Of a DNA stretch of 35,993 bases, positions 9,579 to 35,582 are shown in pieces. Origin of the DNA: a virus. Its lineage: Duplodnaviria; Heunggongvirae; Uroviricota; Caudoviricetes. Made by a program: the position numbers and the translations under genes. The notes under the pieces are model-generated. The model saw only the letters and a program-made list of their open reading frames with translations. It was not told the origin of the DNA and did no database searches. Every line of letters begins with the position of its first letter. The stretch's first letter is position 1. The stretch is taken from positions 1 to 35,993 of the IMG/VR virus record IMGVR_UViG_2585427748_000014. The stretch is one strand, 5' to 3'.

Positions 9579-9592
9579 TTTCTGCTTCAATC

Positions 9593-12837: not shown

Positions 12838-12859
12838 CAGCATCACTTTAGTCAATCAT

Positions 12860-12886: not shown

Positions 12887-12901
12887 AACTGAGGTATGAG
12901 C

Positions 12902-13099: not shown

Positions 13100-13162
13100 T
13101 GGCATTCAGCAGGCATTCATTAAGTGTCTGCGATAATGCTATACGTTTTTTAGGGAGTGAAT

Positions 13163-15864: not shown

Positions 15865-15875
15865 CTGAGGTAATT

Positions 15876-17927: not shown

Positions 17928-17941
17928 TCAGGAGAAATACG

Positions 17942-19147
17942 ATGGCGGTTGATATTAAAGATGTGGAACAGGTCGCGCAGGAGCTGCAGCAGAAGTTTGA
18001 CGACTTCAAAGCAAAGAACGACAAGCGCGTGGATGCGATTGAGCAGGAAAAAGGCAAACTTGCCGGGCAGGTGGAAACCCTGAACGGGAAACTCAGCGAG
18101 CTGGAAAATCTCAAAAGCGACCTTGAAAAAGAGCTGCTTGAGCTGAAACGTCCGGCAGGTGGTGTGCAAAATAAACTGGCCACTGAGCATAAAGAGGCTT
18201 TTGTGGGCTTCCTGCGTAAAGGCCGTGAAGACGGTCTGCGCGATCTGGAGCGTAAGGCATTGCAGGTGGGCACCGATGAAGACGGTGGCTACGCCGTGCC
18301 GGAAGAACTGGATCGCAACATTCTCAACCTGCTGAAAGATGAAGTGGTGATGCGTCAGGAAGCCACGGTGATCACCGTTGGCGGTTCCGACTACAAAAAA
18401 CTGGTGAATCTGGGCGGCACGGCTTCCGGATGGGTGGGGGAAACGGATACGCGATCCCAGACTGCCACCTCCAGACTGGAGCTGATTGAACCTCTCATGG
18501 GGGAAATCTACGGCAACCCGCAGGCTACCCAGAAAATGCTGGACGATGCCTTCTTCAACGTGGAGGCCTGGATCAACAGCGAGCTGGCAACCGAATTTGC
18601 TGAACAGGAAGAAATTGCCTTTACCTCCGGCGATGGCATCAAGAAGCCGAAAGGGTTCCTGGCGTATGAATCCACGGATGAAACCGATAAGGTCCGGGCG
18701 TTCGGCAAACTTCAGCATATTGTATCCGGCGAAGCGACTGCGGTGACCGCAGACGCCATTATCAAACTGATTTACACGCTGCGTAAGGCACACCGCACTG
18801 GCGCGAAGTTCATGATGAACAACAACAGCCTGTTTGCCATCCGTCTGCTTAAAGACAGCGAGGGTAACTATCTGTGGCGTCCGGGGCTGGAACTGGGGCA
18901 GCCGTCCTCTCTGGCGGGTTACGGTATCGCTGAAAACGAACAGATGCCGGATATCGCCGCTGATGCGAAAGCCATTGCATTTGGTAACTTCAAACGGGGT
19001 TACACCATCGTTGACCGTATCGGCACCCGCATTCTGCGTGACCCGTACACCAATAAACCGTTTGTCGGTTTTTATACCACCAAGCGCACCGGCGGGATGC
19101 TGGTCGATTCGCAGGCCATCAAACTGCTGAAGATTGCAGCGGCGTAA
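17942..19147 (+). CDS. Major capsid protein (HK97 fold) with N-terminal coiled-coil delta domain
   Basis: AGGAG Shine-Dalgarno; 401 aa; N-terminal coiled-coil then a capsid domain. Confidence 0.9.
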   Translation: MAVDIKDVEQVAQELQQKFDDFKAKNDKRVDAIEQEKGKLAGQVETLNGKLSELENLKSDLEKELLELKRPAGGVQNKLATEHKEAFVGFLRKGREDGLRDLERKALQVGTDEDGGYAVPEELDRNILNLLKDEVVMRQEATVITVGGSDYKKLVNLGGTASGWVGETDTRSQTATSRLELIEPLMGEIYGNPQATQKMLDDAFFNVEAWINSELATEFAEQEEIAFTSGDGIKKPKGFLAYESTDETDKVRAFGKLQHIVSGEATAVTADAIIKLIYTLRKAHRTGAKFMMNNNSLFAIRLLKDSEGNYLWRPGLELGQPSSLAGYGIAENEQMPDIAADAKAIAFGNFKRGYTIVDRIGTRILRDPYTNKPFVGFYTTKRTGGMLVDSQAIKLLKIAAA

Positions 19148-19151
19148 TCAC

Positions 19152-19175
19152 TCAGGGGCGCGGAACCGCGCCCCC
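19152..19175 (+). terminator. GC-rich hairpin downstream of the capsid gene (GGGGCGCG-GAAC-CGCGCCCC); weak U-tract
   Basis: Perfect 8-bp stem immediately after the capsid stop. Confidence 0.4.
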
Positions 19176-19196
19176 TGTTCTGACGGGTGAAGAATC

Positions 19197-19397
19197 ATGA
19201 TCCTGAAACAAGATCTGAAATGGTCACCGGACGGTATGCGTGTTGAGGTCATTCTGGCCGGTGAGTATGACGACGGGGCGCTTCCTGCCCGTGTGCAGGA
19301 GATTGCACTTCAGGCCGGGTTAGCAGAGCGCGGAATCAGTGCAAAAAGCAGTAAAGCGGCAAAAGAGAAAAAAGCCACGACCAGTAAAGAGGGCTGA
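19197..19397 (+). CDS. Small hypothetical head-module protein
   Basis: 66-aa ORF in the head-to-tail joining region. Confidence 0.4.
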   Translation: MILKQDLKWSPDGMRVEVILAGEYDDGALPARVQEIALQAGLAERGISAKSSKAAKEKKATTSKEG

Positions 19398-19399
19398 GC

Positions 19400-19723
19400 A
19401 TGCTTCTGACAATGGAAGAGATTAAAGCCCAACTCCGGCTGGATGAGGATTTCGATACTGATGACCGCCATCTGCAACTGCTGGCCTGTGCGGCACAAAA
19501 GCGGACGGAAACGTATCTGAACCGGACGCTCTATGCACCGGATGAAACCATTCCGGACAGCGATCCGGACGGGCTGCACCTGCCGGATGATATTCGTCTG
19601 GGGATGCTGATGCTTATCAGCCATTTTTACGAAAATCGCTCGTCGGTTACAGACGTTGAGAAAATGGAGTTGCCAATGAGCTTTAACTGGCTTGTCGGCC
19701 CGTACAGGTATTTCCCGCAATGA
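19400..19723 (+). CDS. Head-tail connector protein (gp6-like)
   Basis: AAGAGGG Shine-Dalgarno; N-terminus MLLTMEEIKAQLRLDEDFD typical of the family. Confidence 0.7.
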   Translation: MLLTMEEIKAQLRLDEDFDTDDRHLQLLACAAQKRTETYLNRTLYAPDETIPDSDPDGLHLPDDIRLGMLMLISHFYENRSSVTDVEKMELPMSFNWLVGPYRYFPQ

Positions 19724-20130
19724 AAATTCGTCAGGCGCAGACCAGCGCAACCTACATTCTGCCGGACCCCGGTGAACTGAATAAACGCGTCCTGATCCGC
19801 CAGCGGGTGGATATGCCCGCGGATAACTTTGGCGTGGAGCCTCAATACCCGGTTGCGTTCCGGACATGGGCGAAGGTTGTCCAGACCAGTGCCACCACTT
19901 GGCAGGAAACCGCGCAGACCGGGGACGCCATCACCCATTACATCACCATTCGTTACCGCCGGGGGATCACCGCTGATTATGAGGTGGTCTGCGGTGACAG
20001 TGTGTACCGGGTGAAACGTCAGCGCGATCTGAACGGGGCGCGGCGCTTTCTGCTGCTGGAGTGTACGGAGCTGGGCGAATGTAGGCAGAGTCACGGAGGC
20101 AACAATGACGACTTCCTTTTTGCACGTTGA
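19720..20130 (+). CDS. Head closure / head-tail adaptor protein
   Basis: ATGA overlap with the upstream gene; size and position. Confidence 0.6.
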   Translation: MKIRQAQTSATYILPDPGELNKRVLIRQRVDMPADNFGVEPQYPVAFRTWAKVVQTSATTWQETAQTGDAITHYITIRYRRGITADYEVVCGDSVYRVKRQRDLNGARRFLLLECTELGECRQSHGGNNDDFLFAR

Positions 20131-20611
20131 TTTTCAGCAGCCCGCGGAGATGCGCTTTAACCGCGCCCGTGTCCGGCGGGCGTTTGTCACGATTGGTCAG
20201 CGTCATATGCGTGATGCCCGTCGGCTGGTGATGCGCCGTGCGCGGTCGGCACCGGGTGAAAACCCCGGTTATCAGACCGGACGCCTGGCACGTTCGATTG
20301 GTTACATGGTACCCAGAGCCAGTAAACATCGCCCTGGTTTTATGGCACGTATAGCCCCTAACCAGCGTAATGGAGAGGGAAACCGCCGTATCACCGGTGA
20401 TTTTTATCCGGCTTTTTTGTTCTATGGCGTGAGGCGAGGGGCAAAGCGTCGTCGCAGCCATCATCGTGGTGCATCCGGTGGCAGCGGCTGGCGACTGGCT
20501 CCACGTAATAACTTCATGGTGGAAACGCTTGAAAAGAACCGCAGCTGGACACGCTATTTTCTGGCGCGGGAATTGCGTAAATCACTGAAGCCGGAGCGAC
20601 GACGCAGATGA
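20105..20611 (+). CDS. HK97 gp10-family tail-completion protein
   Basis: GGAGG Shine-Dalgarno; basic protein at the conserved position. Confidence 0.6.
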   Translation: MTTSFLHVDFQQPAEMRFNRARVRRAFVTIGQRHMRDARRLVMRRARSAPGENPGYQTGRLARSIGYMVPRASKHRPGFMARIAPNQRNGEGNRRITGDFYPAFLFYGVRRGAKRRRSHHRGASGGSGWRLAPRNNFMVETLEKNRSWTRYFLARELRKSLKPERRRR

Positions 20612-21168
20612 AACTGACGCCTGTTATTGCTGCGCTGCGTGCCCGCTGCCCGTATTTTGAAAACCGGGTGGCAGGCGCGGCACAGTTCAAAAATCTGCCG
20701 GAGGTCGGAAAGTTGAGACTCCCGGCGGCGTATGTGGTACCGGGTGATGACTCTCCGGGAGAAAACAAAAGCCAGACCGACTACTGGCAGGAGCTGAAAG
20801 AGGGCTTCTCCGTGGTTGTCATACTGAGTAACGGGCGTGATGAGCGCGGTCAGTTTGCCTCGTATGATGTGGTGGACGATGTCCGGCAGATGCTCTTTAA
20901 GGCCCTGCTGGGCTGGAACCCGGAAGCGTGCGGTAACCCGATTACCTATGACGGCGGCACGCTGCTGGATCTGAATCGTCATGAGCTGATTTATCAGTTC
21001 GATTTTTCGGTCATCAGCGAGCTGACCGAAGACGATACCCGCCAGCAGGATGAGCTGAACAATCTGGATGAACTGCGAACGCTGGCGATTGATGTTGATT
21101 ATCTCGATCCCGGTAACGGGCCTGACGGCGATATCGAACATCACACCGAAATAACCCTTCCTTCCTGA
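20608..21168 (+). CDS. Tail terminator / neck protein (Mu gp37-like)
   Basis: ATGA overlap; precedes the sheath gene. Confidence 0.5.
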   Translation: MKLTPVIAALRARCPYFENRVAGAAQFKNLPEVGKLRLPAAYVVPGDDSPGENKSQTDYWQELKEGFSVVVILSNGRDERGQFASYDVVDDVRQMLFKALLGWNPEACGNPITYDGGTLLDLNRHELIYQFDFSVISELTEDDTRQQDELNNLDELRTLAIDVDYLDPGNGPDGDIEHHTEITLPS

Positions 21169-21176
21169 GAATCTTC

Positions 21177-21347
21177 ATGTTTGTGAAACCTGTTAAAGGG
21201 CGGTCAGTGCCTGACCCTGCCCGCGGTGACCTTTTGCCCGCCGAAGGGCGAAATGTTGACGAGAACAACTACTGGCTGCGCCGTGAAGCAGCGGGTGATA
21301 TCCGGCGCGTGAATAAAAAGGTGAACACCGATGACGATAAGCTTTAA
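21177..21347 (+). CDS. Small conserved protein upstream of the sheath gene (DUF2635-like, 56 aa)
   Basis: ORF MFVKPVKGRSVPDPARGDLLPAEG... (below the ORF-track length cutoff); overlaps the sheath start. Confidence 0.45.
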   Translation: MFVKPVKGRSVPDPARGDLLPAEGRNVDENNYWLRREAAGDIRRVNKKVNTDDDKL

Positions 21348-22827
21348 CACCATTCCGTCGAATACGCTGGTTCCGCTGTTTTATGCGGAAATGGATAACT
21401 CGGCGGCGAATACTGCACAGGACAGCGGGGCATCGTTGCTGATTGGTCACGCCAATAACGGTGCAGAGATTGTTGCCAACAGTCTGGTGCTGATGCCGTC
21501 GGCAGACTATGCACGCCAGATTTGTGGTGCGGGAAGTCAGCTGGCGCGTATGGTCGAGGCTTATCGCCAGACCGACCCGTTTGGCGAGCTGTATGTGATT
21601 GCCGTTCCGGAAGCCACAGGCGCGGCGGCAACGGTTACGCTGACGGTGACCGGAGCAGCAACCGAAACCGGCACGGTGAATGTGTATGTGGGACGTACCC
21701 GCGTGCAGGCACCGGTGACCAACGGCGATAACGTCACGACGATTGCCAGCAGTATCAAAGATGCCATCAATGCCGTTCCGGCCCTGCCGTTTACGGCCTC
21801 ATCTTCGGCAGGCGTGGTCACACTGACCGCGCGTCATAAGGGGCTTTGCGGGAATGAAATTCCTGTCAGCCTCAATTACTACGGCTTTGGTGGGGGCGAA
21901 GTGCTGCCAGCGGGTGTACAGATTGCCGTGGCGACGGGGACCGCCGGAACGGGCGCTCCGGTTCTCACCGGTGCGGTGGCTGCAATGGCGGATGAGCCGT
22001 TTGATTATATCGGTCTGCCGTTCAACGACACGGCCTCCGTTAACACGCTGGTGACCGAGATGAACGATACCAGCGGTCGCTGGAGCTATGCGCGTCAGCT
22101 GTATGGTCATGTGTATACGGCAAAGATCGGCACGCTGTCAGAACTGGTGACCGCAGGTGACCAGTTTAACCAGCAGCACATCACCCTGGCGGGGTACGAA
22201 AAAGAGACCCAGACGCCTGCCGACGAGCTGGCGGCAAGCCGTACCGCCCGCGCAGCGGTGTTTATCCGCAACGATCCGGCACGTCCCACGCAGACCGGTG
22301 AGCTGGTGGGTATGCTGCCTGCGCCGAAGGGGAAACGGTTCACGATGACCGAGCAGCAGACCCTGCTGTCTCATGGCGTGGCAACGGCGTATGTCGAAAG
22401 CGGGGTGCTGCGCATTCAGCGTGATGTCACCACGTACAGGAAAAATGCTTACGGGGTTGCGGATAACAGCTACCTCGACAGCGAGACGCTGCATACCAGT
22501 GCGTATGTACTGCGCAAACTGAAATCCGTCATTACCAGTAAGTACGGGCGTCACAAGCTTGCCTGTGACGGTACCCGCTTTGGTCCCGGTCAGGCGATTG
22601 TCACCCCGGCGGTGATCAAAGGGGAACTGCTGGCAACCTACCGTCAGCTCGAGCGTGCGGGGATCGTGGAAAACTACGAACTGTTCAAGCAGTACCTGGT
22701 TGTGGAGCGTGATGCCAGCGATCCGAACCGCCTGAACACGCTGTTCCCGCCTGACTATGTTAACCAGTTGCGTGTCTTTGCCGTGGTTAACCAGTTCCGT
22801 CTTCAGTATTCAGAGGAGTCTGCATAA
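21331..22827 (+). CDS. Tail sheath protein (Mu gpL-like)
   Basis: 498 aa; followed by the tube gene with TAATG overlap. Confidence 0.85.
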   Translation: MTISFNTIPSNTLVPLFYAEMDNSAANTAQDSGASLLIGHANNGAEIVANSLVLMPSADYARQICGAGSQLARMVEAYRQTDPFGELYVIAVPEATGAAATVTLTVTGAATETGTVNVYVGRTRVQAPVTNGDNVTTIASSIKDAINAVPALPFTASSSAGVVTLTARHKGLCGNEIPVSLNYYGFGGGEVLPAGVQIAVATGTAGTGAPVLTGAVAAMADEPFDYIGLPFNDTASVNTLVTEMNDTSGRWSYARQLYGHVYTAKIGTLSELVTAGDQFNQQHITLAGYEKETQTPADELAASRTARAAVFIRNDPARPTQTGELVGMLPAPKGKRFTMTEQQTLLSHGVATAYVESGVLRIQRDVTTYRKNAYGVADNSYLDSETLHTSAYVLRKLKSVITSKYGRHKLACDGTRFGPGQAIVTPAVIKGELLATYRQLERAGIVENYELFKQYLVVERDASDPNRLNTLFPPDYVNQLRVFAVVNQFRLQYSEESA

Positions 22828-23183
22828 TGGCCCGTATCGGGGGAACCTGTTATTTCAAAATTGACGGTCAGCAGCTATCGCTGACCGGCGGCATTGAGGT
22901 GCCCATGAACAGGACGGTCAATGATGACATCATCGGCCTGGACGGTTCAGTGGACCGCAAGGAAACTCACCGTGCGCCTTATGTCAAAGGGACCTTCAAG
23001 GTGCCGAAGAATTTTCCGGTGAGCAAAATCACCTCGTCTGATGAGATGACCATCACTGCCGAGCTGGCGAACGGTCAGGTCTATGTACTGTCGTCTGCCT
23101 GGCTGCACGGCGAAGCGAACCATAATGCCGAAGAAGGCACGGTCGATCTTGAGTTCCACGGTGAAGAAGGGGATTACCAGTAA
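22827..23183 (+). CDS. Tail tube protein (Mu gpM-like)
   Basis: GAGGAG Shine-Dalgarno; 118 aa. Confidence 0.8.
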   Translation: MARIGGTCYFKIDGQQLSLTGGIEVPMNRTVNDDIIGLDGSVDRKETHRAPYVKGTFKVPKNFPVSKITSSDEMTITAELANGQVYVLSSAWLHGEANHNAEEGTVDLEFHGEEGDYQ

Positions 23184-23452
23184 TGAAAGAGCTTGAGTTA
23201 AAGAAACCGATTACCGCTCATGGCGAGACACTCTCCGTACTGGAGTTTGATGAGCCCACCGGGAAAGATGTCCGCGAGCTGGGGTATCCCTACCAGATGA
23301 ATCAGGATGAGTCCGTCAGACTTCTGGCGCATGTGGTATCGAAATATATTGTGCGGCTGGCGAAAGTGCCGCAAAGCTCTGTCGACCAGATGTCTCCGGC
23401 AGACCTGAATGCAGCGGCGTGGCTTGTGGCTGGGTTTTTCCTCCAGGCCTGA
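23183..23452 (+). CDS. Tail assembly chaperone (upstream frame)
   Basis: Small ORF between the tube and tape-measure genes. Confidence 0.6.
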   Translation: MKELELKKPITAHGETLSVLEFDEPTGKDVRELGYPYQMNQDESVRLLAHVVSKYIVRLAKVPQSSVDQMSPADLNAAAWLVAGFFLQA

Positions 23453-23601
23453 CGGCTGAATACCTTACTGATCGCTTCTTTGATTGCGCCAGCTACTGGC
23501 GCATTAATCCCTTCGAATTGCTGAATATGCCGATCAGTGAAATTCCCTTGCTGGTCAGTCAGGCAAACAGGATAGAGCAGGAGAAACGCACACATGGCTG
23601 A
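23419..23601 (+). CDS. Tail assembly chaperone -1 frameshift extension (probably expressed as a fusion with 23183..23452)
   Basis: Overlapping ORF in the -1 frame running into the tape-measure start; T-run GGGTTTTTC at 23432-23440. Confidence 0.45.
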   Translation: MACGWVFPPGLTAEYLTDRFFDCASYWRINPFELLNMPISEIPLLVSQANRIEQEKRTHG

Positions 23602-25426
23602 ATTTGAGCTTAAGGCGTTGATCACCGGTGTCGACAGGCTTTCTCCCGCGCTGTCGAAAATGCAAAAGAAAATCCGGGGATTTAAACGCCAGGCGGAAGA
23701 AGCGTCACAGGGTGGGCTGGCGCTTGGTGGCGGACTGGCAGCGGGTCTGACGCTTTCCCTGAAATCTTATGCCGATCAGGAAAACGCCGCCACCGGGCTG
23801 AAAGTCGCCATGATGGATGCGAATGGCGAGGTTGGAAAGAGCTTTCAGGACATCAATAAACTGGCTATTGGCCTGGGTAACCAGCTACCCGGTACAACGG
23901 CTGATTTCCAGAACATGATGCAGATGCTGGTGCGTCAGGGGATCCCGGCAGAAAACATTCTTGGCGGTGTGGGTAAAGCGACAGCTTATCTTGCGGTACA
24001 ACTGAAAAAAACACCGGAAGCGGCTGCTGAGTTTGCTGCAAAGATGCAGGATGCTACCGGAACGGCGTCAGAAGACATGATGGGGCTGTTCGACACTATC
24101 CAGAAGGCGTTTTATCTGGGCGTTGACGATACCAACATGTTGTCCTTCTTCACTAAAACCAGTTCTGTTCTGAAGATGGTGAACAAGGACGGTCTTCAGG
24201 CTGCACAGAGCCTTGCCCCCATCAGCGTCATGATGGATCAGATGGGGATGAACGGGGAGTCGGCAGGTAATGCCCTGCGAAAAGTTATCCAGTCCGGATT
24301 AAGCGTTAAGAAAATCAGGGACGTCAATAAAATCATGGCCCGCCAGAAACTCGGGGTACAGCTCGATTTTACTGACGGCAAAGGAAGTTTTGGCGGTCTT
24401 GATAACATGTTCAGGCAACTGGCAAAGCTGCGAAAACTGACCGACGTTAAGCGAACAGGTGTACTTAAGGCAATATTTGGTGATGATGCCGAAACCCTTC
24501 AGGTGGTCAATGCACTAATCGATAAAGGAAAGGATGGCTACGATCAGATCCAGCAGAAGATGAATAAACAGGCCAGCCTGAATAAACGTGTTCAGGCCCA
24601 GCTTGGTACGCTGTCCAACCTGTGGGAGGCAATGACGGGGACCGCAACTAACGGCCTTGCGGCTATTGGCGGCGCATTTTCTGGTGACGCCAAAAATATC
24701 ACGCAATGGCTGGGGGAGTTGGGGGAGAAATTCACGAAGTTTGCGGATGAAAATCCCCGGGTTATTCGCGGCGTCGTCGGGCTTGCTGCCGGTCTTGCGA
24801 TTCTGAAACTGGGATTGATGGGCGTGGGCAGTGCCATCAGTATCGTCAGCAGGATCATGTCGATGACGCCGATTGGCATGATTGCGACGGCGATTGCCCT
24901 GGCTGCGGGATTAATTATCACTAACTGGGATGTTGTCGGACCTTATTTTAAGAAACTCTGGGAAACCATTAGTCCTTATTTTGAGGCTGGCTGGGAACTT
25001 CTGAAGAAGGTTTTTGCCTGGTCGCCGCTGGGGATGGTGATCAATAACTGGGGACCGGTTGTTAAGTGGTTTCAGGATATGTGGGATAAGCTGAAGCCGA
25101 TTATTGAATGGTTTACCGACAGTTCCGGTGACACGGTCGATGCCATTAACTCGGCGCAGTGGGGCGCGGGTGCTTATGATGCTTATGGGACGGGAATACC
25201 GGCACGGGGATACACGCCTTATCCGGCGGTGGATCCGGCTCAGGCAAACAACGCCTCCGATGCCACAGGCTCGAATCCCTTCATGATTAATAAAGCTACC
25301 GCGCCAAAAGTTGATGGTGAGATCAAGGTATCATTTATAAATATGCCACCAGATATGCGGGTTACGGAAACACGCTCCAGTGGCATTGATATAAATCACG
25401 ATGTTGGCTATACCCGATTTTGGTAG
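23594..25426 (+). CDS. Tail tape measure protein
   Basis: 610 aa; Ala/Gly/Gln-rich helical repeats and a central hydrophobic segment. Confidence 0.85.
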   Translation: MAEFELKALITGVDRLSPALSKMQKKIRGFKRQAEEASQGGLALGGGLAAGLTLSLKSYADQENAATGLKVAMMDANGEVGKSFQDINKLAIGLGNQLPGTTADFQNMMQMLVRQGIPAENILGGVGKATAYLAVQLKKTPEAAAEFAAKMQDATGTASEDMMGLFDTIQKAFYLGVDDTNMLSFFTKTSSVLKMVNKDGLQAAQSLAPISVMMDQMGMNGESAGNALRKVIQSGLSVKKIRDVNKIMARQKLGVQLDFTDGKGSFGGLDNMFRQLAKLRKLTDVKRTGVLKAIFGDDAETLQVVNALIDKGKDGYDQIQQKMNKQASLNKRVQAQLGTLSNLWEAMTGTATNGLAAIGGAFSGDAKNITQWLGELGEKFTKFADENPRVIRGVVGLAAGLAILKLGLMGVGSAISIVSRIMSMTPIGMIATAIALAAGLIITNWDVVGPYFKKLWETISPYFEAGWELLKKVFAWSPLGMVINNWGPVVKWFQDMWDKLKPIIEWFTDSSGDTVDAINSAQWGAGAYDAYGTGIPARGYTPYPAVDPAQANNASDATGSNPFMINKATAPKVDGEIKVSFINMPPDMRVTETRSSGIDINHDVGYTRFW

Positions 25427-25454
25427 CCAGGATTCCCCTCACAGGTATTGCTGG

Positions 25455-25482
25455 TTGTAAGTCATAAATAGAGTGATAGAAT
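25455..25482 (+). promoter_or_regulatory. Candidate sigma70 promoter for the tail-module moron (-35 TTGTAA, 16-bp spacer, -10 TAGAAT)
   Basis: Hexamers read from the sequence upstream of the gene at 25518. Confidence 0.4.
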
Positions 25483-25517
25483 TAATGCACATTTAGAAAA
25501 ATGTTAATAGGCGAAAA

Positions 25518-26048
25518 ATGAAAGGCTATATCACAGCAAGTGTAATTCTTGGAGCAGCGGCTATTTTTTCATCTCTCATAATCTCTGGCAACATCTCCTT
25601 TAAAGATGAACATATTATTCAGTTATCTGGAGGAGCCATAAAACTTGGTGATGTTTATAAAGAAAATAAATTGATAAGTGCAAAGATTATTTTTCCAGAT
25701 AATCAGGGTGAACAGATTCTTGTTGTCGACGGCAATCCTGAAAACTTTAAGGAGGATTTTCAGGAGAAATTAAATAAAGTAATAAAAACTTTAAATGCGT
25801 CAAAGAAAAAAGATGAAGAGAAAGTTAGCCTGGATAATTTAAGTGTTATTGAAGAGTCTAAACTAGAGCTCGTTTCTGCGGTGCGTTACTCTGCTCAGTA
25901 TGTTCCTATGTTTACTCTGACGCTGGACAAAAAAGAAATTACCATGCCTAAAAATACGGTAATATTTCCATTTGCCAGCGATGAAACAGCTAAGTATTTA
26001 AATGAACAACAGCAAAAGTATAAAGATTCGTTGTTTCTGACTCGCTAA
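25518..26048 (+). CDS. Hypothetical signal-anchored or secreted protein (176 aa), A+T-rich moron inside the tail module
   Basis: N-terminal hydrophobic signal/anchor; Lys/Glu-rich body; A+T-rich; own promoter-like element and terminator. Confidence 0.55.
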   Translation: MKGYITASVILGAAAIFSSLIISGNISFKDEHIIQLSGGAIKLGDVYKENKLISAKIIFPDNQGEQILVVDGNPENFKEDFQEKLNKVIKTLNASKKKDEEKVSLDNLSVIEESKLELVSAVRYSAQYVPMFTLTLDKKEITMPKNTVIFPFASDETAKYLNEQQQKYKDSLFLTR

Positions 26049-26066
26049 TTAATAAAATTCATTACA

Positions 26067-26100
26067 AGGCCACCTTCTAATAGGTGGCTTTTTTATTTTC
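26067..26100 (+). terminator. Rho-independent terminator (AGGCCACC...GGTGGCTT plus T-run)
   Basis: Stem-loop followed by TTTTTTATTTT. Confidence 0.65.
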
Positions 26101-26109
26101 GGAGTGTAT

Positions 26110-27438
26110 ATGACGTGGAAAGACAGGCTTCAGGATGCGTCATTTCGAGGTGTGCCGTTTAAGGTTGAAGAAGAAAGTGCGGGAACCGGTCGCCGTGTGG
26201 AAACACATGAATACCCGAACCGCGACAAGCCCTATACCGAAGATCTGGGAAAAGTCACTTTCCGCCCGTCCATCACAGCTTATGTGGTGGGAGATGACTG
26301 CTTTGACCAGCGCGATCGCCTGATTGAAGCGCTGAATAAACCCGGTCCCGGCAAGCTTGTCCACCCGACATATGGTGAGCTGAAAGTCTGTGTTGACGGG
26401 GAAGTTCGGGTCAGCACATCGAAAAGTGAAGGGCGTATTGTCCGCTTTGACCTGAAGTTTGTCGAAGCAGGAGAACTCTCTTACCCCACATCAGGTGCGG
26501 CGACGGCGCAGACGCTGATGTCATCCTGTTCTGCACTGGATGACTGCATCAGTGACAGTTTCAGTGGTTTCAGTATCGATGGCGTGGCGGATTTTGTGCA
26601 GAACGACGTCGTCGGTAATGCCAGCACAATGCTTGGGTATGTTTCTGATGCGATGAAAGTGGTGGATTCTGCCGTATCGGATGCCGCCAGACTGTTGCAG
26701 GGGGATATCTCGGTACTTCTGCCGCCGCCATCGTCAGGCAAAAATTTCGTTGAGCAGGTGCAGAAAATGTGGCGTACCGGGAAGCGCCTTTATGGTAACG
26801 CCAGCGACCTGGTCACCATGATCAAAACGCTTTCCGGTGTCAGCCTCGGCAGCGATCTGCAACCGCGCGGCGTCTGGAAAACGGACAGTAAAACCACCGC
26901 CACGGCTACGCAGCAGCGTAACGTGGTTGCCAGCACCCTTCGTACGACCGCAATCAGCGAAGCGGCGTATGCCGTCACCCGATTGCCTGCGCCAACAACT
27001 TCCGCGGTGATGCAGAATGCCGCAGTGGGGCAGGCAACAACACCTGCGCAGAGCACTGGCTGGCCTTCCGTCACGCATCCGGCACTGAACAATGCACCGG
27101 CGGTGAAAAACACAGTTGACCTGCCGACGTGGGAAGAACTGACTGACATTCGCGACACACTGAATACGGCAATTGATAAGGAGTTGTCCCGTACAACCAG
27201 TGATGCGCTGTTTCTGGCGCTGCGCCGGGTGAAAGCAGATCTGAATGCGGATATCAACACGCGCCTTGAACAGTCTGCACGGATCATTCAGCGCACGCCG
27301 GATGAGGTTTTACCCGCGCTGGTGCTGGCGGCGACCTGGTTTGATAACGCGGCGCGTGACGCGGACATTATCCGGCGTAATGCCATTACGCATCCCGGCT
27401 TTGTGCCGGTGATCCCTCTGAAGGTGCCAGTGCAATGA
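26110..27438 (+). CDS. DNA circularization protein (Mu gpN-like)
   Basis: GGAG Shine-Dalgarno; position after the tape measure gene. Confidence 0.75.
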   Translation: MTWKDRLQDASFRGVPFKVEEESAGTGRRVETHEYPNRDKPYTEDLGKVTFRPSITAYVVGDDCFDQRDRLIEALNKPGPGKLVHPTYGELKVCVDGEVRVSTSKSEGRIVRFDLKFVEAGELSYPTSGAATAQTLMSSCSALDDCISDSFSGFSIDGVADFVQNDVVGNASTMLGYVSDAMKVVDSAVSDAARLLQGDISVLLPPPSSGKNFVEQVQKMWRTGKRLYGNASDLVTMIKTLSGVSLGSDLQPRGVWKTDSKTTATATQQRNVVASTLRTTAISEAAYAVTRLPAPTTSAVMQNAAVGQATTPAQSTGWPSVTHPALNNAPAVKNTVDLPTWEELTDIRDTLNTAIDKELSRTTSDALFLALRRVKADLNADINTRLEQSARIIQRTPDEVLPALVLAATWFDNAARDADIIRRNAITHPGFVPVIPLKVPVQ

Positions 27439-28514
27439 ACGATAACGTCACGCTACGGGTAAATGGCCGGGAGTGGAATGGCTGGACATCGGTGCGCATC
27501 GGTGCCGGTGTTGAACGACTGGCGCGGGATTTCAGTGTGGAGATCCCCCGCCAGTGGCCGGGAGATGATGGTATCACCACGCTTCAGCCGCGCATTAAAA
27601 ATGGTTCAAAAGTGGAAGTGCTGATTGGTGATGAGCTGGTGATCACCGGCTGGGTGGAGGCGACCCCCGTTCGTTACGATGCCCGTTCGGTCAGCACCGG
27701 TATTGCCGGACGTAGTCTGACCGCTGACCTGATTGACTGTGCAGCCGAACCGACACAGTTTAACGGACGATCGCTGGTACAGATTGCGCAGGCGCTTGCT
27801 GCGCCTTTCGGCATTGAGGTGGTGAACAGCGATGCGCCGTCGGGTGTTATTCCGGATGTCCAGCCTGATCACGGTGAAACGGTGATCGAGGTGATCAACA
27901 AAATACTCGGTCAGCAGCAGGCGCTGGCTTATGACGACCCGCACGGCAGGCTGGTGATTGGTGGTATTGGCTCAACGCGGGCACATACCGCGCTGGTACT
28001 TGGGGAAAACATCCTTTCCTGTGATACGGAGAAGAGTATCCGGGAGCGGTTTTCAGTTTACCAGGTGGCGGGGCAGCGTGCCGGAAACGACGATGATTTC
28101 GGTGAGGCCACCACCACCGCGCTGCGGGCCCGCACAGAGGATGCATTTATTGCCCGTTACCGTCCGATGTATATCAGGCAGACAGGGCAGGCTACGGGGG
28201 CAGGCTGTATTGCGCGTGCTGACTTTGAAGCCCGACAACGGGCGGCGCGGACGGATGAAACCACCTATGTGGTGCAGGGCTGGCGACAGGGTAACGGTAC
28301 GCTGTGGCAGCCCAACCAGCGGGTGATTGTCTTCGATCCGGTCTGTGGTTTCGACAATACCGAACTGCTTGTCTCGGAAGTCACGTTTACTCAGGACCAG
28401 AATGGCACCCTGACGGAAATCCGTGTCGGCCCGCCTGATGCTTATCTGCCTGAACCCGAAGATCCCGGCGCGCGGAAAAAGAAAAAAGCCAGAGTACAGG
28501 AGGACCCGTTCTGA
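27435..28514 (+). CDS. Baseplate hub / tail protein (Mu gpP-like)
   Basis: 359 aa; ATGA overlap; conserved Mu-like order. Confidence 0.75.
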   Translation: MNDNVTLRVNGREWNGWTSVRIGAGVERLARDFSVEIPRQWPGDDGITTLQPRIKNGSKVEVLIGDELVITGWVEATPVRYDARSVSTGIAGRSLTADLIDCAAEPTQFNGRSLVQIAQALAAPFGIEVVNSDAPSGVIPDVQPDHGETVIEVINKILGQQQALAYDDPHGRLVIGGIGSTRAHTALVLGENILSCDTEKSIRERFSVYQVAGQRAGNDDDFGEATTTALRARTEDAFIARYRPMYIRQTGQATGAGCIARADFEARQRAARTDETTYVVQGWRQGNGTLWQPNQRVIVFDPVCGFDNTELLVSEVTFTQDQNGTLTEIRVGPPDAYLPEPEDPGARKKKKARVQEDPF

Positions 28515-29062
28515 TGAGGACGATTGAAGCAATGCAGCGACAACTTCTCGGCCTGATTGGGCGGGCAGTGGTGAAAAGCATCAGTGCCGCCACGAAATGT
28601 CAGACCGTGGATGTGTCCCTGATTGCCGGTGAACCCAAAGCCGGGGTTGAACATCTTGAACCCTACGGTTTTACCGCAAGGGCAAACAGCGGTGCGGAAG
28701 CGGTGGTGTTGTTTCCGGATGGCGACCGTTCTCACGCGGTGGTTGTTACGGTGTCGGACCGTCGCTACCGCCTGAAAGGGCTGCAGACGGGTGAGGTGGC
28801 TGTCTATGACGATCAGGGGCAGTCCGTGACGCTGACCCGGGAGGGGATCGTGGTGGACGGTGCAGGTAAAACGATCACGTTTCGCAATTCACCTAAAGCA
28901 CGTTTTGAAATGGACCTTGAAGTGACCGGACAGGTGAAAGACCTGTGCGACTCCGGCGGTACCACCATGTCAGCGATGCAGCTTGCCTATAACGGGCATC
29001 GTCACAGAGAGAACGGTCAGGGCAGTAACACCGACAAACCTGATAAAGCGATGGAGGCATGA
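28514..29062 (+). CDS. Baseplate spike/assembly protein (gpV / Mu gp45-like)
   Basis: 182 aa at the conserved position. Confidence 0.7.
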   Translation: MRTIEAMQRQLLGLIGRAVVKSISAATKCQTVDVSLIAGEPKAGVEHLEPYGFTARANSGAEAVVLFPDGDRSHAVVVTVSDRRYRLKGLQTGEVAVYDDQGQSVTLTREGIVVDGAGKTITFRNSPKARFEMDLEVTGQVKDLCDSGGTTMSAMQLAYNGHRHRENGQGSNTDKPDKAMEA

Positions 29063-29487
29063 TGGAACTGTGGCTGACGGTGAACGGTAAACGCACCTGC
29101 GCCAGCGCACAGCTGGATCCGCTGACCCGCGCCGTGGTGATTTCCCTGTTTACCTGGCGGCGGGCGGAGCCTGATGACAACGCCGACGTCCCGATGGGAT
29201 GGTGGGGGGATACCTGGCCTGCGGTACAGAATGACCGTTACGGCTCCCGACTGTGGCTGCTTCAGCGCAGCAAACTGACCAATCAGCTGGTGCAGACGGT
29301 AAGGGGGTATATCCGCGAATGCCTGCAATGGATGATTGATGACGGCGTGGTGTCCCGTATTGATCTGGATATCCGCCGCACCGGGATTAATGAACTGGGT
29401 AACAGTATCACTCTCTGGCGTCGTGACGGACCGGTAATGATTTCTTTTGATGATCTGTGGAGTGCGATAACGCATGGCGGACAGTGA
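29059..29487 (+). CDS. Baseplate protein (Mu gp46-like)
   Basis: 142 aa; ATGA overlap. Confidence 0.65.
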   Translation: MMELWLTVNGKRTCASAQLDPLTRAVVISLFTWRRAEPDDNADVPMGWWGDTWPAVQNDRYGSRLWLLQRSKLTNQLVQTVRGYIRECLQWMIDDGVVSRIDLDIRRTGINELGNSITLWRRDGPVMISFDDLWSAITHGGQ

Positions 29488-30532
29488 ATTTCAGCGCCCG
29501 ACGCTGGCAGAAAATATCAGTATGCTCCGTAACGATTTATTCGCCAGGCTGGACGTCAGCAACACGCTCCGGCGCATGGATGAAGACGTGCGGGCAAAGG
29601 TGTATGCGGCGGCGCTGCATACGGTTTACGGGTACATCGATTATCTGGCAATGAACATGCTGCCTGACCTGTGCGATGAGTCCTGGCTGGCGCGACATGC
29701 TGCGATGAAACGGTGTCCGCGCAAGGGGGCCACGGCTGCCAGCGGGTATATGCGCTGGGAAGGTGTCAGCGATGGCCTGAAGGTGACCGCCGGGAGTGTT
29801 ATTCAGCGCGATGACCTGGTGCAGTACACGGCAACTGCCGATGCAACCAGCTCCGGTGGTGTCCTGCGCGTGCCGATCGCCTGCTCAAGTGCAGGCGCGG
29901 TCGGTAACGCTGACGACGGTACGTCATTAATCCTGGTCACGCCGGTGAATGGTCTGCCGTCTTCCGGCGTGGCAGATACACTGACAGGTGGATTTGATAC
30001 TGAAGAGCTGGAAACGTGGCGCGCCCGCGTCATTGAGCGGTATTACTGGACGCCTCAGGGCGGGGCTGACGGGGACTATGTCGTCTGGGCTAAAGAAGTG
30101 CCCGGCATTACCCGCGCATGGACATACCGACACTGGATGGGAACGGGGACTGTCGGTGTGATGATTGCCAGCAGTGACCTGATTAATCCCATTCCGGAAG
30201 AATCAACGGAAATGGCGGCAAGACAACATATCGGGCCACTGGCCCCGGTGGCAGGCTCTGATTTGTATGTGTTCAGGCCGGTGGCGCATACGGTGGATTT
30301 TCATATCCGTGTGACGCCGGATACACCAGAAATACGGGCTGCCATCACCGCCGAGTTGCGTTCGTTCCTGCTGCGTGATGGTTATCCGCAGGGAGAACTG
30401 AAGGTGTCGCGTATCAGTGAAGCGATTTCCGGTGCGAACGGGGAATACAGCCATCAGTTGCTTGCACCGGCAGACAATATCTCCATTGCAAAAAATGAAC
30501 TGGCGGTACTGGGGACGATTTCATGGACGTGA
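29474..30532 (+). CDS. Baseplate J-like protein (Mu gp47-like)
   Basis: 352 aa at the conserved position. Confidence 0.8.
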
Positions 30533-31107
30533 CAAACGATGATTACATCCGTCTGTTGTCGGCACTGTTGCCCCCCGGTCCGGCGTGGTCAGCCAGCGAT
30601 CCGGCGATTGCCGGTGCGGCACCGTCATTAACCCGCGTTCATCAGCGTGCGGATGCCCTGATGCGGGAGCTGGATCCGCGCACCACCACTGAACTGATAA
30701 ACCGCTGGGAGCGTCTGTGCGGCCTGCCGGATGAATGTATTCCTACAGGGACACAGACCCTTCGCCAGCGTCAGCAACGGCTGGATGCGAAGATTAATCT
30801 GGCGGGCGGCATTAATGAGGATTTTTACCTTGCACAGCTTGCTGCCCTGGGCAGACCAGACGCCACCATCACGCGATACGATAAAAGCACGTTCACCTGC
30901 TCATCTGCCTGTACTGACGCGGTGAATGCGCCGGAATGGCGGTATTACTGGCAGGTCAACATGCCAGCCGCCACCAACACCACCTGGATGACATGTGGCG
31001 ATCCCTGTGATTCCGCACTGCGTATCTGGGGCGACACCGTTGTCGAGTGTGTGCTTAACAAACTCTGCCCTTCGCATACCTACGTAATTTTTAAATATCC
31101 GGAGTAA
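30523..31107 (+). CDS. Tail protein (Mu gp48-like, YmfQ/DUF2313 family)
   Basis: 194 aa between baseplate J and the tail fibre. Confidence 0.7.
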
Positions 31108-31110
31108 TCC

Positions 31111-32211
31111 ATGCATCGTATAGACACGAAAACCGCGCAGAAGGATAAGTTCGGCGCGGGTAAGAACGGTTTTACCCGTGGTAACCCCCAGACCGGCACG
31201 CCTGCCACCGATCTGGATGATGACTACTTTGACATGTTGCAGGAAGAACTCTGCAGCGTGGTGGAGGCATCCGGTGCCAGCCTGGAGAAGGGGCGGCACG
31301 ATCAGCTTCTTACCGCGCTTCGTGCGCTGCTGTTAAGCCGCAAGAATCCGTTTGGCGATATCAAATCGGATGGCACTGTGCAAACGGCTCTCGAAAACCT
31401 GGGAATGACAGACATTCTGAATGATAAACAGGATAAAAATGATAATCTGACATCATTGTCGAGCTTAACAGGAATACCGGATGGGCTGGCATTTTTTACA
31501 GGTGCTGGAACAATGGATATGACAGCGCTGACTCAAAATGGTAGGGAAATTTTAAGTAAAAAAAACGTATCGGAAACTCTACAATATTTAACACTTGGTG
31601 ATGGAACAGGAAGGCTTTTGGGGGTTCAGGTATTTGGATCATCTGGGACTTATCACAAATCACCTGGTGTAACGAAAATTATAGTGGAAGCCGTTGGCGG
31701 TGGTGGTGCCAGTGGCAATTTATCAGCAACAGCCTCAAATAACTGTGGTGTAAGTGCTGCCGGTTCCAACGGGGCATATGCTAAAGCATTTTTTTATCAG
31801 TCTATACCTGAATCCGTGCAAGTAACTATTGGAAGCGGTGGTGTAGCAGGAACAGGACCAGGAGGCTCTGGAGGTGACGGCGGGAATACAAGCTTTGGTG
31901 ATTTGCTTGTATGCCCGGGAGGAAGGGGATCAACTCAAGTTCAGCAGGTACCTCCATTTTCAGGGGGAAGTGCAACAGAAGCACCAATTCCTACAGGGCA
32001 AGGGATTCTGTTCCATTCAGTTTCACGATCAAATTTATGTGGGGCACTTGGACTTGGTGATGATCAGGCGATTGGCGTTGAAAGTATAACCACTACTATG
32101 CTTGGGACATACGGTATTGGCGGGACAGGGAAATACAATAAGGCGTCATCAGGCCCAGCGACAGGAAATAATGGAAATCAGGGATATATTCTTGTGTGGG
32201 AGTATCAGTAA
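31111..32211 (+). CDS. Tail fibre protein (conserved N-terminus, divergent Gly-rich A+T-rich C-terminal domain)
   Basis: N-terminus [47 protein letters not shown] typical of fibre N-termini; composition changes at about 31380. Confidence 0.8.
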
Positions 32212-32390
32212 TGAGCGATATTTATGCAGTCGTACAAAATGGTGTCGTTACAAATCTTGTTGTATGGGATGGTAAGTCAGAGTTTAAGCCAGAAAAAGCG
32301 GATATAGTTAAATGTGTTGGAGATGTTGGTATTGGCTGGTCATATGACGGTAAAAAATTCATCAAGCCTGAAGATAAAACCGCGCAATAG
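32211..32390 (+). CDS. Small hypothetical protein downstream of the fibre (possible fibre chaperone)
   Basis: TAATG overlap with the fibre stop; GGGAG upstream; A+T-rich like the fibre C-terminus. Confidence 0.35.
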   Translation: MSDIYAVVQNGVVTNLVVWDGKSEFKPEKADIVKCVGDVGIGWSYDGKKFIKPEDKTAQ

Positions 32391-32410
32391 CGCGGTTTTA
32401 TTTATTTTAC
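32376..32410. terminator. Bidirectional rho-independent terminator between convergent genes (ACCGCGC-AATA-GCGCGGT flanked by A- and T-runs)
   Basis: Perfect 7-bp GC stem with an A tract upstream and a T tract downstream. Confidence 0.75.
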
Positions 32411-33421
32411 TGCTAAAATTCGTTTTCTTAGCATCAGCTCTAAAGGCTCCTCAACTAATTTATAAAGTATGATTGAGACTATGGTTATTATAACAAGGAG
32501 CGCTATTAAATAGAGTGGTCCGGGGTTATGTCCAAAGATTTTAAAGCAAAATAATATAATGGGTTGATGAATTAAATAAAAAATAAATGATGATTTCCCT
32601 AATAGCTCTAGGGTTTTTGAACTGAGGATAGTATGAATGACTCCATTTCTTAGATAGATGCATGAAGTAAAGAATATTACCATGGGGAGTAAATAATATA
32701 ACGAATAACGTAGACTATTATTTATGTTGTTGCTATAATATATAGCTATTAGCAGAGGTAATAGTGAAATTAAAAACAAAAGGCTGTCGACTGTCTGCTG
32801 TCGGCTGTTTTTCCAGCAAGCGTAAATAATCATGCCGCAAATAAATTCTACCAAGCGGCTTACTGGGAATATATAATATAACCAGTGATTAAGTTCTTCT
32901 GTTTGTATAATTTTTAAAAAATATATAGTTAATAGTAGAGTTATAATTGATATTGCAGTGATTACTTTCTTTGTAATTGATGTATAAATCAACGGAATAA
33001 ACATTAAATAAAAAAACAGCTCATCAGACAAAGACCATGATACACCATTTAATGAGAAGTAGTAATCCTCCTTTGGTATCCAACTTTGCATTAATAAAAT
33101 ATTTGTTAAGGTTTTTGAAAAATCAAAGTTCTTTAAGTGAATGGTTAGTAAAATAAATGGCATGGCTAATAATAGATGCATTGGAACAATTCTTGCCAAT
33201 CTTAAAAGAATAAACTGTCTTTTACTTGTTACTTCATTTTTTAGCTTGTCTTCATATGAATATGAAAGAATGAAGCCAGATAAAATAAAGAAAAAGGAAA
33301 CGCCAATAAATCCCTGGGAAAACATTTCTTTTACAAAAACACCAAAATAGTCTGTATTTAAATGGCATAAATAAACCATTAATGCAGCTATAAATCTGAG
33401 TCCTGTTAAGTGGCGAAGCAT
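32402..33421 (-). CDS. Acyltransferase family 3 membrane protein (O-antigen acetyltransferase-like conversion gene)
   Basis: ATG at 33421 with AGAGG Shine-Dalgarno; N-terminal motif RHLTGLRFIAALMVYLCH typical of acyltransferase-3; about 10 predicted TM helices; A+T-rich. Confidence 0.8.
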   Translation of the reverse strand: MLRHLTGLRFIAALMVYLCHLNTDYFGVFVKEMFSQGFIGVSFFFILSGFILSYSYEDKLKNEVTSKRQFILLRLARIVPMHLLLAMPFILLTIHLKNFDFSKTLTNILLMQSWIPKEDYYFSLNGVSWSLSDELFFYLMFIPLIYTSITKKVITAISIITLLLTIYFLKIIQTEELNHWLYYIFPVSRLVEFICGMIIYACWKNSRQQTVDSLLFLISLLPLLIAIYYSNNINNSLRYSLYYLLPMVIFFTSCIYLRNGVIHTILSSKTLELLGKSSFIFYLIHQPIILFCFKIFGHNPGPLYLIALLVIITIVSIILYKLVEEPLELMLRKRILAVK

Positions 33422-34156
33422 CAATAACCTCTTGTTATGAAGATAAAGCAATTCAAAAGAGGCATTTTATGACTGTAGGGGATTGGTGTCTATATGAATG
33501 AGTAATCTGGTTTTTAAAATCTTCTTTAATTACAAAATAAACCTTTCTTAGGCTATAGATTTGTGGCTGTAACACTGTGTGTCCACGACATTGAGACATC
33601 CTTCCGCTTTGCTATAGATGTGGAATTCAGGATCAAGCGATATCGGACTCATCCTCAGCACCACCCGGTTAATCTGGATAACGGGAGAAGGGAAGCGCTG
33701 CCAGAAGATGATGATGGTTACAGTTCTGCACTGGCTATTCTGCACTGGCTATATTCGTGGTGATCACTTACATAATTAATGACGCCAGGAATACGGAGTT
33801 TGATGATTGCCTGGTGATGTGAGAAAAAACTCATACACACAAAGCTTTGCACTGGATTGCAAGGCTTTGTGCTATTCGATAGCACGAGTTTGAATGAAAA
33901 TCAGCCGTTATCGATTTTACGTATTTTTGTATGAGAGGATTTTTACCTCCTCCCACCGATCCTCCATAACTTTACGACACTGTCTCTAGGACTGCTATGT
34001 GCCAAGAGCGGAATTTTCTAATATTATGCTGCATTCGTTTAAGGGGAGCAGATCAGCTAACGACTCCTACGTCCTGGGGAAAGGTCACATATGCTAAACA
34101 GCAGCTCAGCAAAGAGAAGAGCGAATTTGGTAACGGGAAACCGTTATGATATGAAT

Positions 34157-34185
34157 AAGGCTCCCAATGGGAGCCTTATTTTTTG
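34157..34185. terminator. Hairpin plus T-run terminator (AAGGCTCCC-AAT-GGGAGCCTT, then TTTTTT), possibly bidirectional
   Basis: Perfect stem followed by U tract on the + strand; lies just 3' of the minus-strand small gene. Confidence 0.6.
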
Positions 34186-34201
34186 ATAGGGATGATGAAT
34201 A

Positions 34202-34375
34202 TTATCCGAGGCTTACTGGCTTTACACCTTTCTTCGGCCCGACCATATCCATGTCTTTTTCCTTCTGACCAACTTTGGCAAGTTTGTTGCCGTCGATGGA
34301 AGCCCAGAAGTCGAGAGAGCGTCTTGCACTAGCCATAGCTTTATCAGAAGTGATTTTTTTATGTTGTTTGATCAT
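34202..34375 (-). CDS. Small Lys-rich hypothetical protein (57 aa)
   Basis: AAGAGG upstream of ATG 34373-34375; below the ORF-track length cutoff; downstream of the 190-aa gene on the same strand. Confidence 0.4.
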   Translation of the reverse strand: MIKQHKKITSDKAMASARRSLDFWASIDGNKLAKVGQKEKDMDMVGPKKGVKPVSLG

Positions 34376-34465
34376 GGTTAACCTCTTTGGCTATAGACTT
34401 TACGGATAATTTTATAACAAATGCGTTCATTAAACAAACAGCCCATCGACTGCTGATTGAGATTG

Positions 34466-35038
34466 TCATTCTTCAACTGGGTCAATGCCATTCACTTTCC
34501 GTCGTATGGTGTCGAGGATGTCGTGCACATCTGCAGACATCTTACTGTGGTCATGCCATACTTGGGCAAATCCGTAGCTCCTGTAACGCGGTTGTGCATC
34601 TTCAGTAGGATCTTGAATATAAACGTCGTCAAGCTCCGCGATCTGGCAGAAGGTAGTCGCGTAAATAAGTGCGATGATCAACACATTGCCTGTTAGGTCG
34701 GTATCCTCATCTGAAATGAAGTTTTCTAACATGCAAATTGAGAATTGCTCACGGCGCCAGTCGTATTTACAAATGATAACCGCATGAAGCTGTTCGGGCT
34801 CATCACGGTCGATCAGCTTTAACGTTATATCCAGTATTCCATCTACAGCGTCACCGCGATAGGTCTGCATCGCCCATCGCCAGTCCAAGTGGCTTTGTAA
34901 ACTTGCATCTTCAAGCTGGCGTCTCTCTTCATCGCTCAAAACGCCTACAGAGATATTAGTCCATCCAAGTGATTCAATAGCTTTTTGTGTTGTTGCTAGA
35001 CATTGATCATGTATTTGCTGAGTAGATAGGAAGCTCAC
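34466..35038 (-). CDS. Hypothetical acidic protein (190 aa), GTG start, att-proximal cargo
   Basis: AAGGA 9 nt upstream of GTG; no recognisable family. Confidence 0.45.
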   Translation of the reverse strand: MSFLSTQQIHDQCLATTQKAIESLGWTNISVGVLSDEERRQLEDASLQSHLDWRWAMQTYRGDAVDGILDITLKLIDRDEPEQLHAVIICKYDWRREQFSICMLENFISDEDTDLTGNVLIIALIYATTFCQIAELDDVYIQDPTEDAQPRYRSYGFAQVWHDHSKMSADVHDILDTIRRKVNGIDPVEE

Positions 35039-35410
35039 TTCATGTCATCCTTTATCTTTTGTCCCACAGCAATTATATCGTTCAAGTGTGAAAGTAGGCG
35101 AGTTATTCTGACCTACGCCTCTCGCTATACGTGGTTTTAGAGGGCTGACATGACTGTTCCCAGCTGATTGCCACACGGCATTGTTCGCAAGATTTATGTC
35201 GACTCAATTATGAACGTCTGCTGATCGCTCATAACAGGCATTCACTACATTTATCTTCATTGGCTATGCAAGTCGTAATACAAGTTGGGACAAAACTGAG
35301 ACACATAAGGCCTCACAATGGCTTGCAAGGCTTTACATGTTTTGATGTGATGGGACGTGTGAGCGCAGTGTTGATGGGGTAATGCTTTGAATTAGAAACG
35401 GATTCTTATA

Positions 35411-35456
35411 ATTCGTAATGCGAAGGTCGTAGGTTCGACTCCTATTATCGGCACCA
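35411..35456 (+). other. attR core: 3' fragment of a tRNA-Thr gene (anticodon loop through CCA), not a complete tRNA
   Basis: ATTCGTAATGCGAAGGTCGTAGGTTCGACTCCTATTATCGGCACCA contains a T-arm (GGTTCGACTCC), acceptor 3' strand and CCA; the 5' half of the tRNA is absent. Confidence 0.75.
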
Positions 35457-35582
35457 TTAAAATCAAAGAGTTACCCCATATTTAAATACACCACGTTTCC
35501 TCCTGTGCCGTATTTGTGCCATTGTAACCTTGGCAATTCATCAAAATACTGTTCTGACATCAGGCAGTGCAGGTGCAGACAT

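Follow-up and report, generated by a model that had tools for sequence, protein, structure and literature searches.

A displaced thrW 3' fragment as the likely attR of an SfV/SfI/SfII-like prophage in E. coli

What does a 46-base piece of a tRNA gene mark when it lies close to the right end of a viral sequence record? The window, by which we mean the whole analysed stretch of 35,993 nucleotides, carries such a piece at positions 35411-35456. The initial annotation, made from the letters alone, read it as the right junction of a prophage inserted in a tRNA-Thr gene and took the LysR-family gene fragment that follows for host DNA. Our analysis indicates that 35411-35456 is almost certainly the attR of a ~38.6-kb SfV/SfI/SfII-like temperate myovirus integrated in E. 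coli thrW. Core, site and mechanism are already published for SfI, SfII, SfIV, SfV, SfX and P22; the element is a common and well-described one at a well-described site, and it brings no new biology. The reconstruction does define the right-hand limit of the prophage with single-base precision, with phage DNA stopping at 35410, or at 35456 if the core is included, and it identifies the integration module as a P22/SfV-type Int acting at thrW. These results are of use for annotation, for the design of attL, attR, attP and attB PCR, and for telling cargo from chromosome.

Identity and extent of the att core

The core and its probable strand-exchange segment were located as follows.

35411..35456, + strand: att core, read as attR; displaced 3' fragment of thrW, exact single match, identical to the published Sf/P22 core
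35412..35418, + strand: anticodon-loop bases TTCGTAA, likely the 7-bp strand-exchange (overlap) segment

The 46 bases of 35411-35456 on the + strand, ATTCGTAATGCGAAGGTCGTAGGTTCGACTCCTATTATCGGCACCA, were identical at 46 of 46 positions to residues 31-76 of the 76-nt thrW gene for tRNA-Thr(CGU) in the E. coli strains KSC1031 and K-12. They comprise the last base of the 5' anticodon-stem strand, the anticodon loop with CGT, the variable loop, the T arm, the 3' acceptor strand and CCA. The initial description of a tRNA-Thr 3' part running from the anticodon loop to CCA, lacking the 5' half, was therefore exact in both coordinates and content. The core occurred once in the window, even with three mismatches allowed, and its string was matched in none of 100 dinucleotide-preserving shuffles of the window. 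A second thrW fragment, of the kind tandem elements would leave, was sought in the window at the same tolerance of up to three mismatches and was not found.

A complete tRNA on extended alignment was also looked for, and none emerged. The 30 bases left of the core bore no resemblance to a tRNA 5' half, ARAGORN reported no tRNA in the whole window, and Rfam gave no tRNA at its gathering score in the window nor at E<=1 in 35250-35600. By itself, the 46-bp thrW fragment gives no tRNA score.

The core string corresponded letter for letter to the published att core of SfI, SfII, SfIV, SfV, SfX and P22, and the same 46 bases are annotated as the attP core in the SfI record. In the SfI paper, exactly these 46 bases are given as the core of attP, attL and attR; the paper describes them as common to SfII, SfV, SfX and P22, and demonstrates by PCR that attP is split to both prophage ends (PMC3636060); a 46-bp att was likewise reported at both prophage ends for SfIV (PMC3851460). 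In a seven-way alignment of the window attR, the KSC1031 attL, the attP of SfI, SfII, SfV and P22, and the CP4-6 attR of K-12, the core was invariant at 7/7 att sites.

The left end in a sister genome

Over its full length, the window was collinear with, and 99.956% identical to, the E. coli KSC1031 chromosome. The left end of the source contig lies beyond the window, and intact thrW, int and xis were observed in the near-identical KSC1031. Gene order there runs proB, proA, an intact tRNA-Thr, a tyrosine integrase, an excisionase-like HTH gene, early genes, lysis genes, an HK97-type head, a Mu-like contractile tail, an acyltransferase with small ORFs, the 46-bp fragment, a LysR pseudogene, paoD and paoC. 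The relevant KSC1031 features (coordinates of locus L003) are:

8909-8984, + strand: intact thrW, attL side
8999-10162, - strand: int, intact ORF of 387 aa
47581-47626, + strand: second core copy, attR side

Intact thrW in KSC1031 thus lies 3.2 kb left of the window start. The initial annotation had predicted an intact tRNA-Thr and an integrase at the other prophage end, outside the window, and both were located in this 99.956%-identical genome. Between proA and paoD, KSC1031 holds the core exactly twice, as direct repeats separated by 38,642 bp, so that the matching tRNA-Thr copy looked for at the far end is present and correctly oriented. The KSC1031 integrase matched Phage_integrase (Pfam PF00589, E = 1e-47) and was 99% identical to the SfI Int and 89% identical to that of P22. 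An HTH_17 protein overlaps the start of int in KSC1031, as xis does in the SfII and SfV records, and int and xis form an intact pair in this genome. In the source strain, attL would be expected to comprise xis, int and then an intact thrW whose 3' 46 bp abut TTTAAATCAATAAGTTACACATC.

The identity between the two ends extends beyond the tRNA. Over the 18 bp past CCA, the phage sequence TTTAAATCAATAAGTTAC (KSC1031 attL, L003 8985-9002) and the chromosomal sequence TTAAAATCAAAGAGTTAC (window 35457-35474) agreed at 15 of 18 positions. The attL/attR repeat consequently looks longer (64 bp, 95%) than the 46-bp core, because both flanks derive from related integrase genes, each being an int 3' end with its spacer.

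Reconstructed attB and attP have natural counterparts

An attB was constructed by joining proA-thrW of KSC1031 to the window from 35457 onward. ATCC 8739 and numerous further strains carry this sequence with 100% identity over 800 bp, and a single match spans the junction in 948 of the 5426 complete E. coli genomes. The ATCC 8739 annotation lists proA, tRNA-Thr, the LysR pseudogene and paoD with no insertion between them. The attP, constructed by joining window 35057-35456 to the int side of the KSC1031 attL, was contiguous from 35286 in the free phages SfIV, SfI, SfV and SfII (97.5-98.9%) and P22 (80%). Natural attB and attP counterparts therefore exist for both reconstructed junctions, which bears out the claim that the fragment is the attR of a prophage in a tRNA gene.

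In the seven-way alignment, the window tracked phage attP to the left of the core and tracked K-12 and empty-site DNA to its right; attL showed the reverse pattern in the flank comparison. Similarity to SfII, SfI, SfIV and SfV stopped exactly at 35456, and the fragment indeed sets the prophage boundary as had been proposed. The same attR junction, consisting of P arm, core and yagP flank, was present in 465 of the 5426 complete E. coli genomes. The Islander algorithm is built on a pattern in which the tRNA gene is restored at one end of the element and a displaced piece of it marks the opposite end; the sites of lambda-type heterobivalent tyrosine integrases and the Islander islands likewise show a regenerated target gene with a displaced 3' fragment (PMC4383910).

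The P arm and the integrase classes at thrW

The phage side of attR contains three features:

35286..35410, + strand: phage-derived arm of attR (P arm of attP), 125 bp, defined by similarity to free Sf phages and P22
35286..35302, + strand: putative arm-type Int-binding doublet TGGGACAAAACTGAGAC, a repeated conserved motif
35301..35340, - strand: hairpin within the P arm; this strand is sense for int in the free phage

Phage similarity begins at 35286, exactly at the first doublet, and passes through the core to the int side. In the P arm, TGGGAC occurs once more at 35351-35356. The attP of SfII and that of P22 each carry a matching doublet on the int side, at a distance of 219 bp. The motif is kept across diverged class-1 arms from IMG/VR (see below). 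From these repeats, the TGGGAC doublets are probably arm-type Int sites, and they are treated here as putative. Lambda-type att sites also consist of a core plus arms with repeated arm-type motifs, as here; the present site is anticodon-centred in a tRNA gene ('A' class), whereas lambda attB is intergenic.

A scan of IMG/VR for the 46-bp core returned more than 120 loci (L010-L129), in which at least three unrelated arm/integrase classes were joined to the same core:

class 1: TGGGAC doublets; P22/Sf
class 2: TGTGCC doublets; HK75/SfX
class 3: resembles the CP4-6/intF arm

In classes 1 and 2, the int ORF stops 14 nt past the tRNA CCA and one arm doublet falls within the int coding region.

Among known systems, the closest are SfI, SfII, SfIV and SfV at thrW, with an identical core, P arms of 97.5-98.9% identity and an Int that is 99% identical to that of KSC1031. 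After integration of Sf phages, int and the O-antigen modification genes come to lie at opposite prophage ends (PMC3306764), and the same layout is seen here, where int is next to thrW and the putative surface-modification cargo is on the attR side. The host differs, being E. coli with yagP-paoD downstream rather than Shigella with yaiC downstream (PMC3306764). The attP and attB of P22, also at thrW, have the same core, TGGGACA...TGGGACA doublets at the same spacing (219 bp apart) and an int that stops 14 nt past the tRNA CCA. The P22 Int is 89% identical; its arms, however, are only ~80% identical, and P22, a podovirus, has a different virion module.

The hairpin at 35301-35340 folded as RNA at -18.9 kcal/mol (z = -4.07), and none of 200 shuffles was as stable. 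Its G-U pairs favour the int-sense strand, and a putative rho-independent terminator is annotated at this site in the SfII record. In the free phage, the hairpin lies downstream of int across the core, and in the prophage the two are parted, an arrangement that recalls lambda sib/tI. Covariation lends weak support to a conserved RNA structure, with compensatory changes in 3 of 14 pairs, a consensus energy of -5.9 kcal/mol and diverged members that break the fold.

Proposed route of integration and point of crossover

In the route that we propose, a P22-type tyrosine Int together with host IHF would have brought attP into synapsis with the 3' portion of thrW, to which its core is identical, and strand exchange would have occurred inside the 48-bp exact identity at 35411-35458. 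The phage copy of the core would now complete thrW at attL, beside int and beyond the window. The original 3' part of the chromosomal thrW would have been displaced 38.6 kb downstream, where it forms 35411-35456, with the P arm (35286-35410) on its left and, on its right, chromosomal DNA that starts at 35457 and leads into yagP and paoD. Recombination of attL with attR by Int and Xis would undo the integration, and the prophage may still be competent for excision today.

The sequence data confine the crossover to the 48-bp identity 35411-35458 only. Within it, we infer that the crossover most likely fell in the anticodon-loop segment 35412-35418, since the block of identity starts just one base ahead of the loop. 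This is the pattern of the anticodon-centred att sites that Islander defines as its 'A' class (PMC4383910).

Prophage body, cargo and competence

The prophage interior and its cargo comprise the following features:

1..35410, + strand: body of an SfV/SfI/SfII-like myovirus prophage, collinear with KSC1031; the int-xis-proximal 3.2 kb and attL lie beyond the window
32402-33451, - strand: Acyl_transf_3 O-acetyltransferase-like gene (PF01757, 2e-30; phrog_3333 'O-acetyltransferase', 7.5e-51)
33563-33763, + strand: UmuD/S24-like fragment
34466-35038, - strand: 190-aa protein, phrog_4350

The body is arranged in modules, with early and regulatory genes followed by lysis genes, an HK97-type head, a Mu-like contractile tail and then cargo. 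Over 55-71% of 11000-35456, it was 97-98% identical to SfII, SfI, SfIV and SfV.

The cargo at 32212-35285, between the tail fibre and attR, is unlike that of the Sf phages. Their gtrABC glucosylation cassette is absent, and in its place stand the Acyl_transf_3 O-acetyltransferase-like gene, which sits 2 kb from the core, and uncharacterised genes, including a 57-aa ORF. The stretch 34800-35247 was found in only one of the 5426 complete E. coli genomes. PADLOC gave no defence-system match on the cargo ORFs. When the acyltransferase was compared with known phage Oac proteins, the best phage match was only 35% identical (TL-2011b), and Sf6 gave no match. At the other end of the window, in the early-left region of the prophage, Rfam matched the STnc100 sRNA (RF02076) at 930-1152 on the - strand with 48.5 bits, against a gathering score of 47; the match overlaps a hypothetical gene annotated as frameshifted in KSC1031.

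Whether attR still serves a functional prophage is a separate matter. The tail-fibre ORF at 31111-32211 (+) encodes 366 aa with a fibre N-terminus and a glycine-rich domain, and PGAP calls the corresponding gene partial (stfP, KSC1031). Virion competence is uncertain, because this ORF is called partial and no tail-fibre assembly gene is evident after it. The prophage may thus be defective even if its att sites are intact. Taken further, 35411-35456 could be a genuine attR that survives as the fossil boundary of a decayed prophage and has no role in excision. The partial tail-fibre gene, the missing assembly gene, the tape-measure gene frameshifted in KSC1031 and the S24/UmuD-like fragment in the cargo would all suit such decay. 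They are set against an intact int and xis in KSC1031, att arms on both sides that are 97-99% identical to those of inducible phages, a tape-measure ORF (23594-25426, +, 610 aa) that is intact in the window, and complete head, tail and lysis modules that are 97-98% identical to those of viable Sf phages. On balance, we regard a fossil boundary as unlikely, while still worth serious consideration.

The chromosomal flank and an older element at thrW

To the right of the core, the attR of the SfV-like prophage is followed by two features:

35457..35524, - strand: fossil of a second thrW-targeting element, consisting of a 14-nt spacer, a stop codon and the last 18 int codons
35583..35993, - strand: yagP, LysR-family pseudogene fragment (Pfam PF03466)

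The ORF at 35583-35993 covers only the C-terminal half of the LysR substrate-binding domain (PF03466, profile positions 103-207 of 209). It corresponds to K-12 yagP, and PGAP calls it a LysR pseudogene with a missing N-terminus; the LysR-family gene fragment noted after the tRNA piece was thus recognised correctly. In KSC1031, FDAARGOS_1277, K-12 and ATCC 8739, yagP adjoins paoDCBA, of which paoD lies beyond the window. The view that the flank is host DNA needs a qualification. It holds for the yagP/paoD backbone, and the same flank occurs at empty sites; the first 68 bp (35457-35524), however, are the fossil of a phage integrase and are host DNA only in the practical sense of being fixed in E. 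coli.

The stop codon of the fossil is at 35471-35473, and a 1-nt deletion lies near 35497. Read on the minus strand, it gives NGTNTAQEE, the 1-nt deletion and NVVYLNMG*, for which the class-2 Int C-terminus reads NGTNTAQEENVVYLNVR*. Its nucleotide identity to the int 3' ends of IMG/VR loci L036, L057 and L072 was 91% over 46 nt, and it keeps an intact arm-type doublet, TGTGCCGTATTTGTGCCAT, at 35504-35522, the same as in the class-2 int family. The class-2 Int is 99% identical to the Ints of HK446, HK542, HK75, mEp043, mEp213, mEpX2 and ECP1, and 96.7% identical to that of SfX.

Since this fossil is present at empty sites and in K-12 as well, the resident attB of E. coli is an old attL scar of an HK75/SfX-type element. 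The remainder of that element has been deleted up to the middle of a LysR gene, now yagP. In a search with one genome per species, an exact 24-mer over the deletion joint returned E. coli and Shigella records only, which is suggestive of a scar limited to the E. coli/Shigella lineage, as far as an exact-match search that could miss diverged copies can tell. A literature search on a fossil integrase at thrW/yagP found no paper describing the scar. Mildly new and descriptive is the observation that the 'empty' attB flank found species-wide is a scar left by an earlier phage with an integrase of another class; it serves as a reminder that DNA taken for 'host' flank at a tRNA hotspot may derive from an element. 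It is rather doubtful that the retained doublet TGTGCCGTATTTGTGCCAT still binds an HK75/SfX-type Int. If it did, it could bias integration, tandem lysogeny or excision at the thrW hotspot, for example by giving the HK75/SfX family an attB with a built-in arm site or by hindering the excision of abutting Sf-type prophages.

Earlier occupants of thrW raise the question of which element the fragment belongs to. At the right end of CP4-6 in K-12, the same thrW fragment and chromosomal flank occur with 99.8% identity over 35411-35993; the annotated end of CP4-6 abuts the thrW fragment, and the order is intF, thrW fragment, yagP. CP4-6 differs in being another element with another integrase, in having intF beside the fragment rather than beside the intact tRNA, and in its unrelated arm. 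The fragment could then be the attR of an older resident element, either CP4-6-like or a fossil of HK75/SfX type, which the SfV-like prophage merely adjoins while ending elsewhere. Such a history would accommodate the shared CP4-6 end, the fossil at 35457-35524 and the use of thrW by at least three arm/integrase classes. It is very improbable, however, in view of the 125 bp left of the fragment, which are the SfV/SfI attP arm and are contiguous with core and int in free phages. Moreover, CP4-6 shares nothing left of 35411, no second thrW fragment occurs in the window, KSC1031 has only two cores between proA and paoD, and the fossil is found on the right of the core, where the remnant of an older attL would be expected, and not on its left. 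Given the two junction tests and the absence of CP4-6 similarity left of 35411, the 46-bp fragment is best read as the boundary of the SfV-like prophage and not as a CP4-6 relic. A CP4-6 origin was also considered for the 164 bp left of the fragment and was rejected, as K-12 similarity begins exactly at 35411.

That the fragment is a phage-borne tRNA gene or pseudogene carried as cargo can practically be dismissed: tRNA genes do occur in related phages (two in SfI; PMC3636060), and a P22-like attP was once wrongly annotated, as a 'false tRNA' (bioRxiv 10.1101/2020.10.05.325894), but the piece here has no 5' half, draws no ARAGORN or Rfam call even at E<=1, and is 100% identical to the 3' part of the host thrW, abutting the chromosomal DNA of empty sites.

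As a separate observation on yagP, the first 23 residues of its ORF (MPAPVVLILAAGRGERF...), which by eye may recall the N-terminus of a MobA-like nucleotidyltransferase, matched no Pfam family at E<=10. The ORF looks like a deletion chimera in which residues 24-131 are LysR and the first 23 are unrelated to it and overlap the end of paoD.
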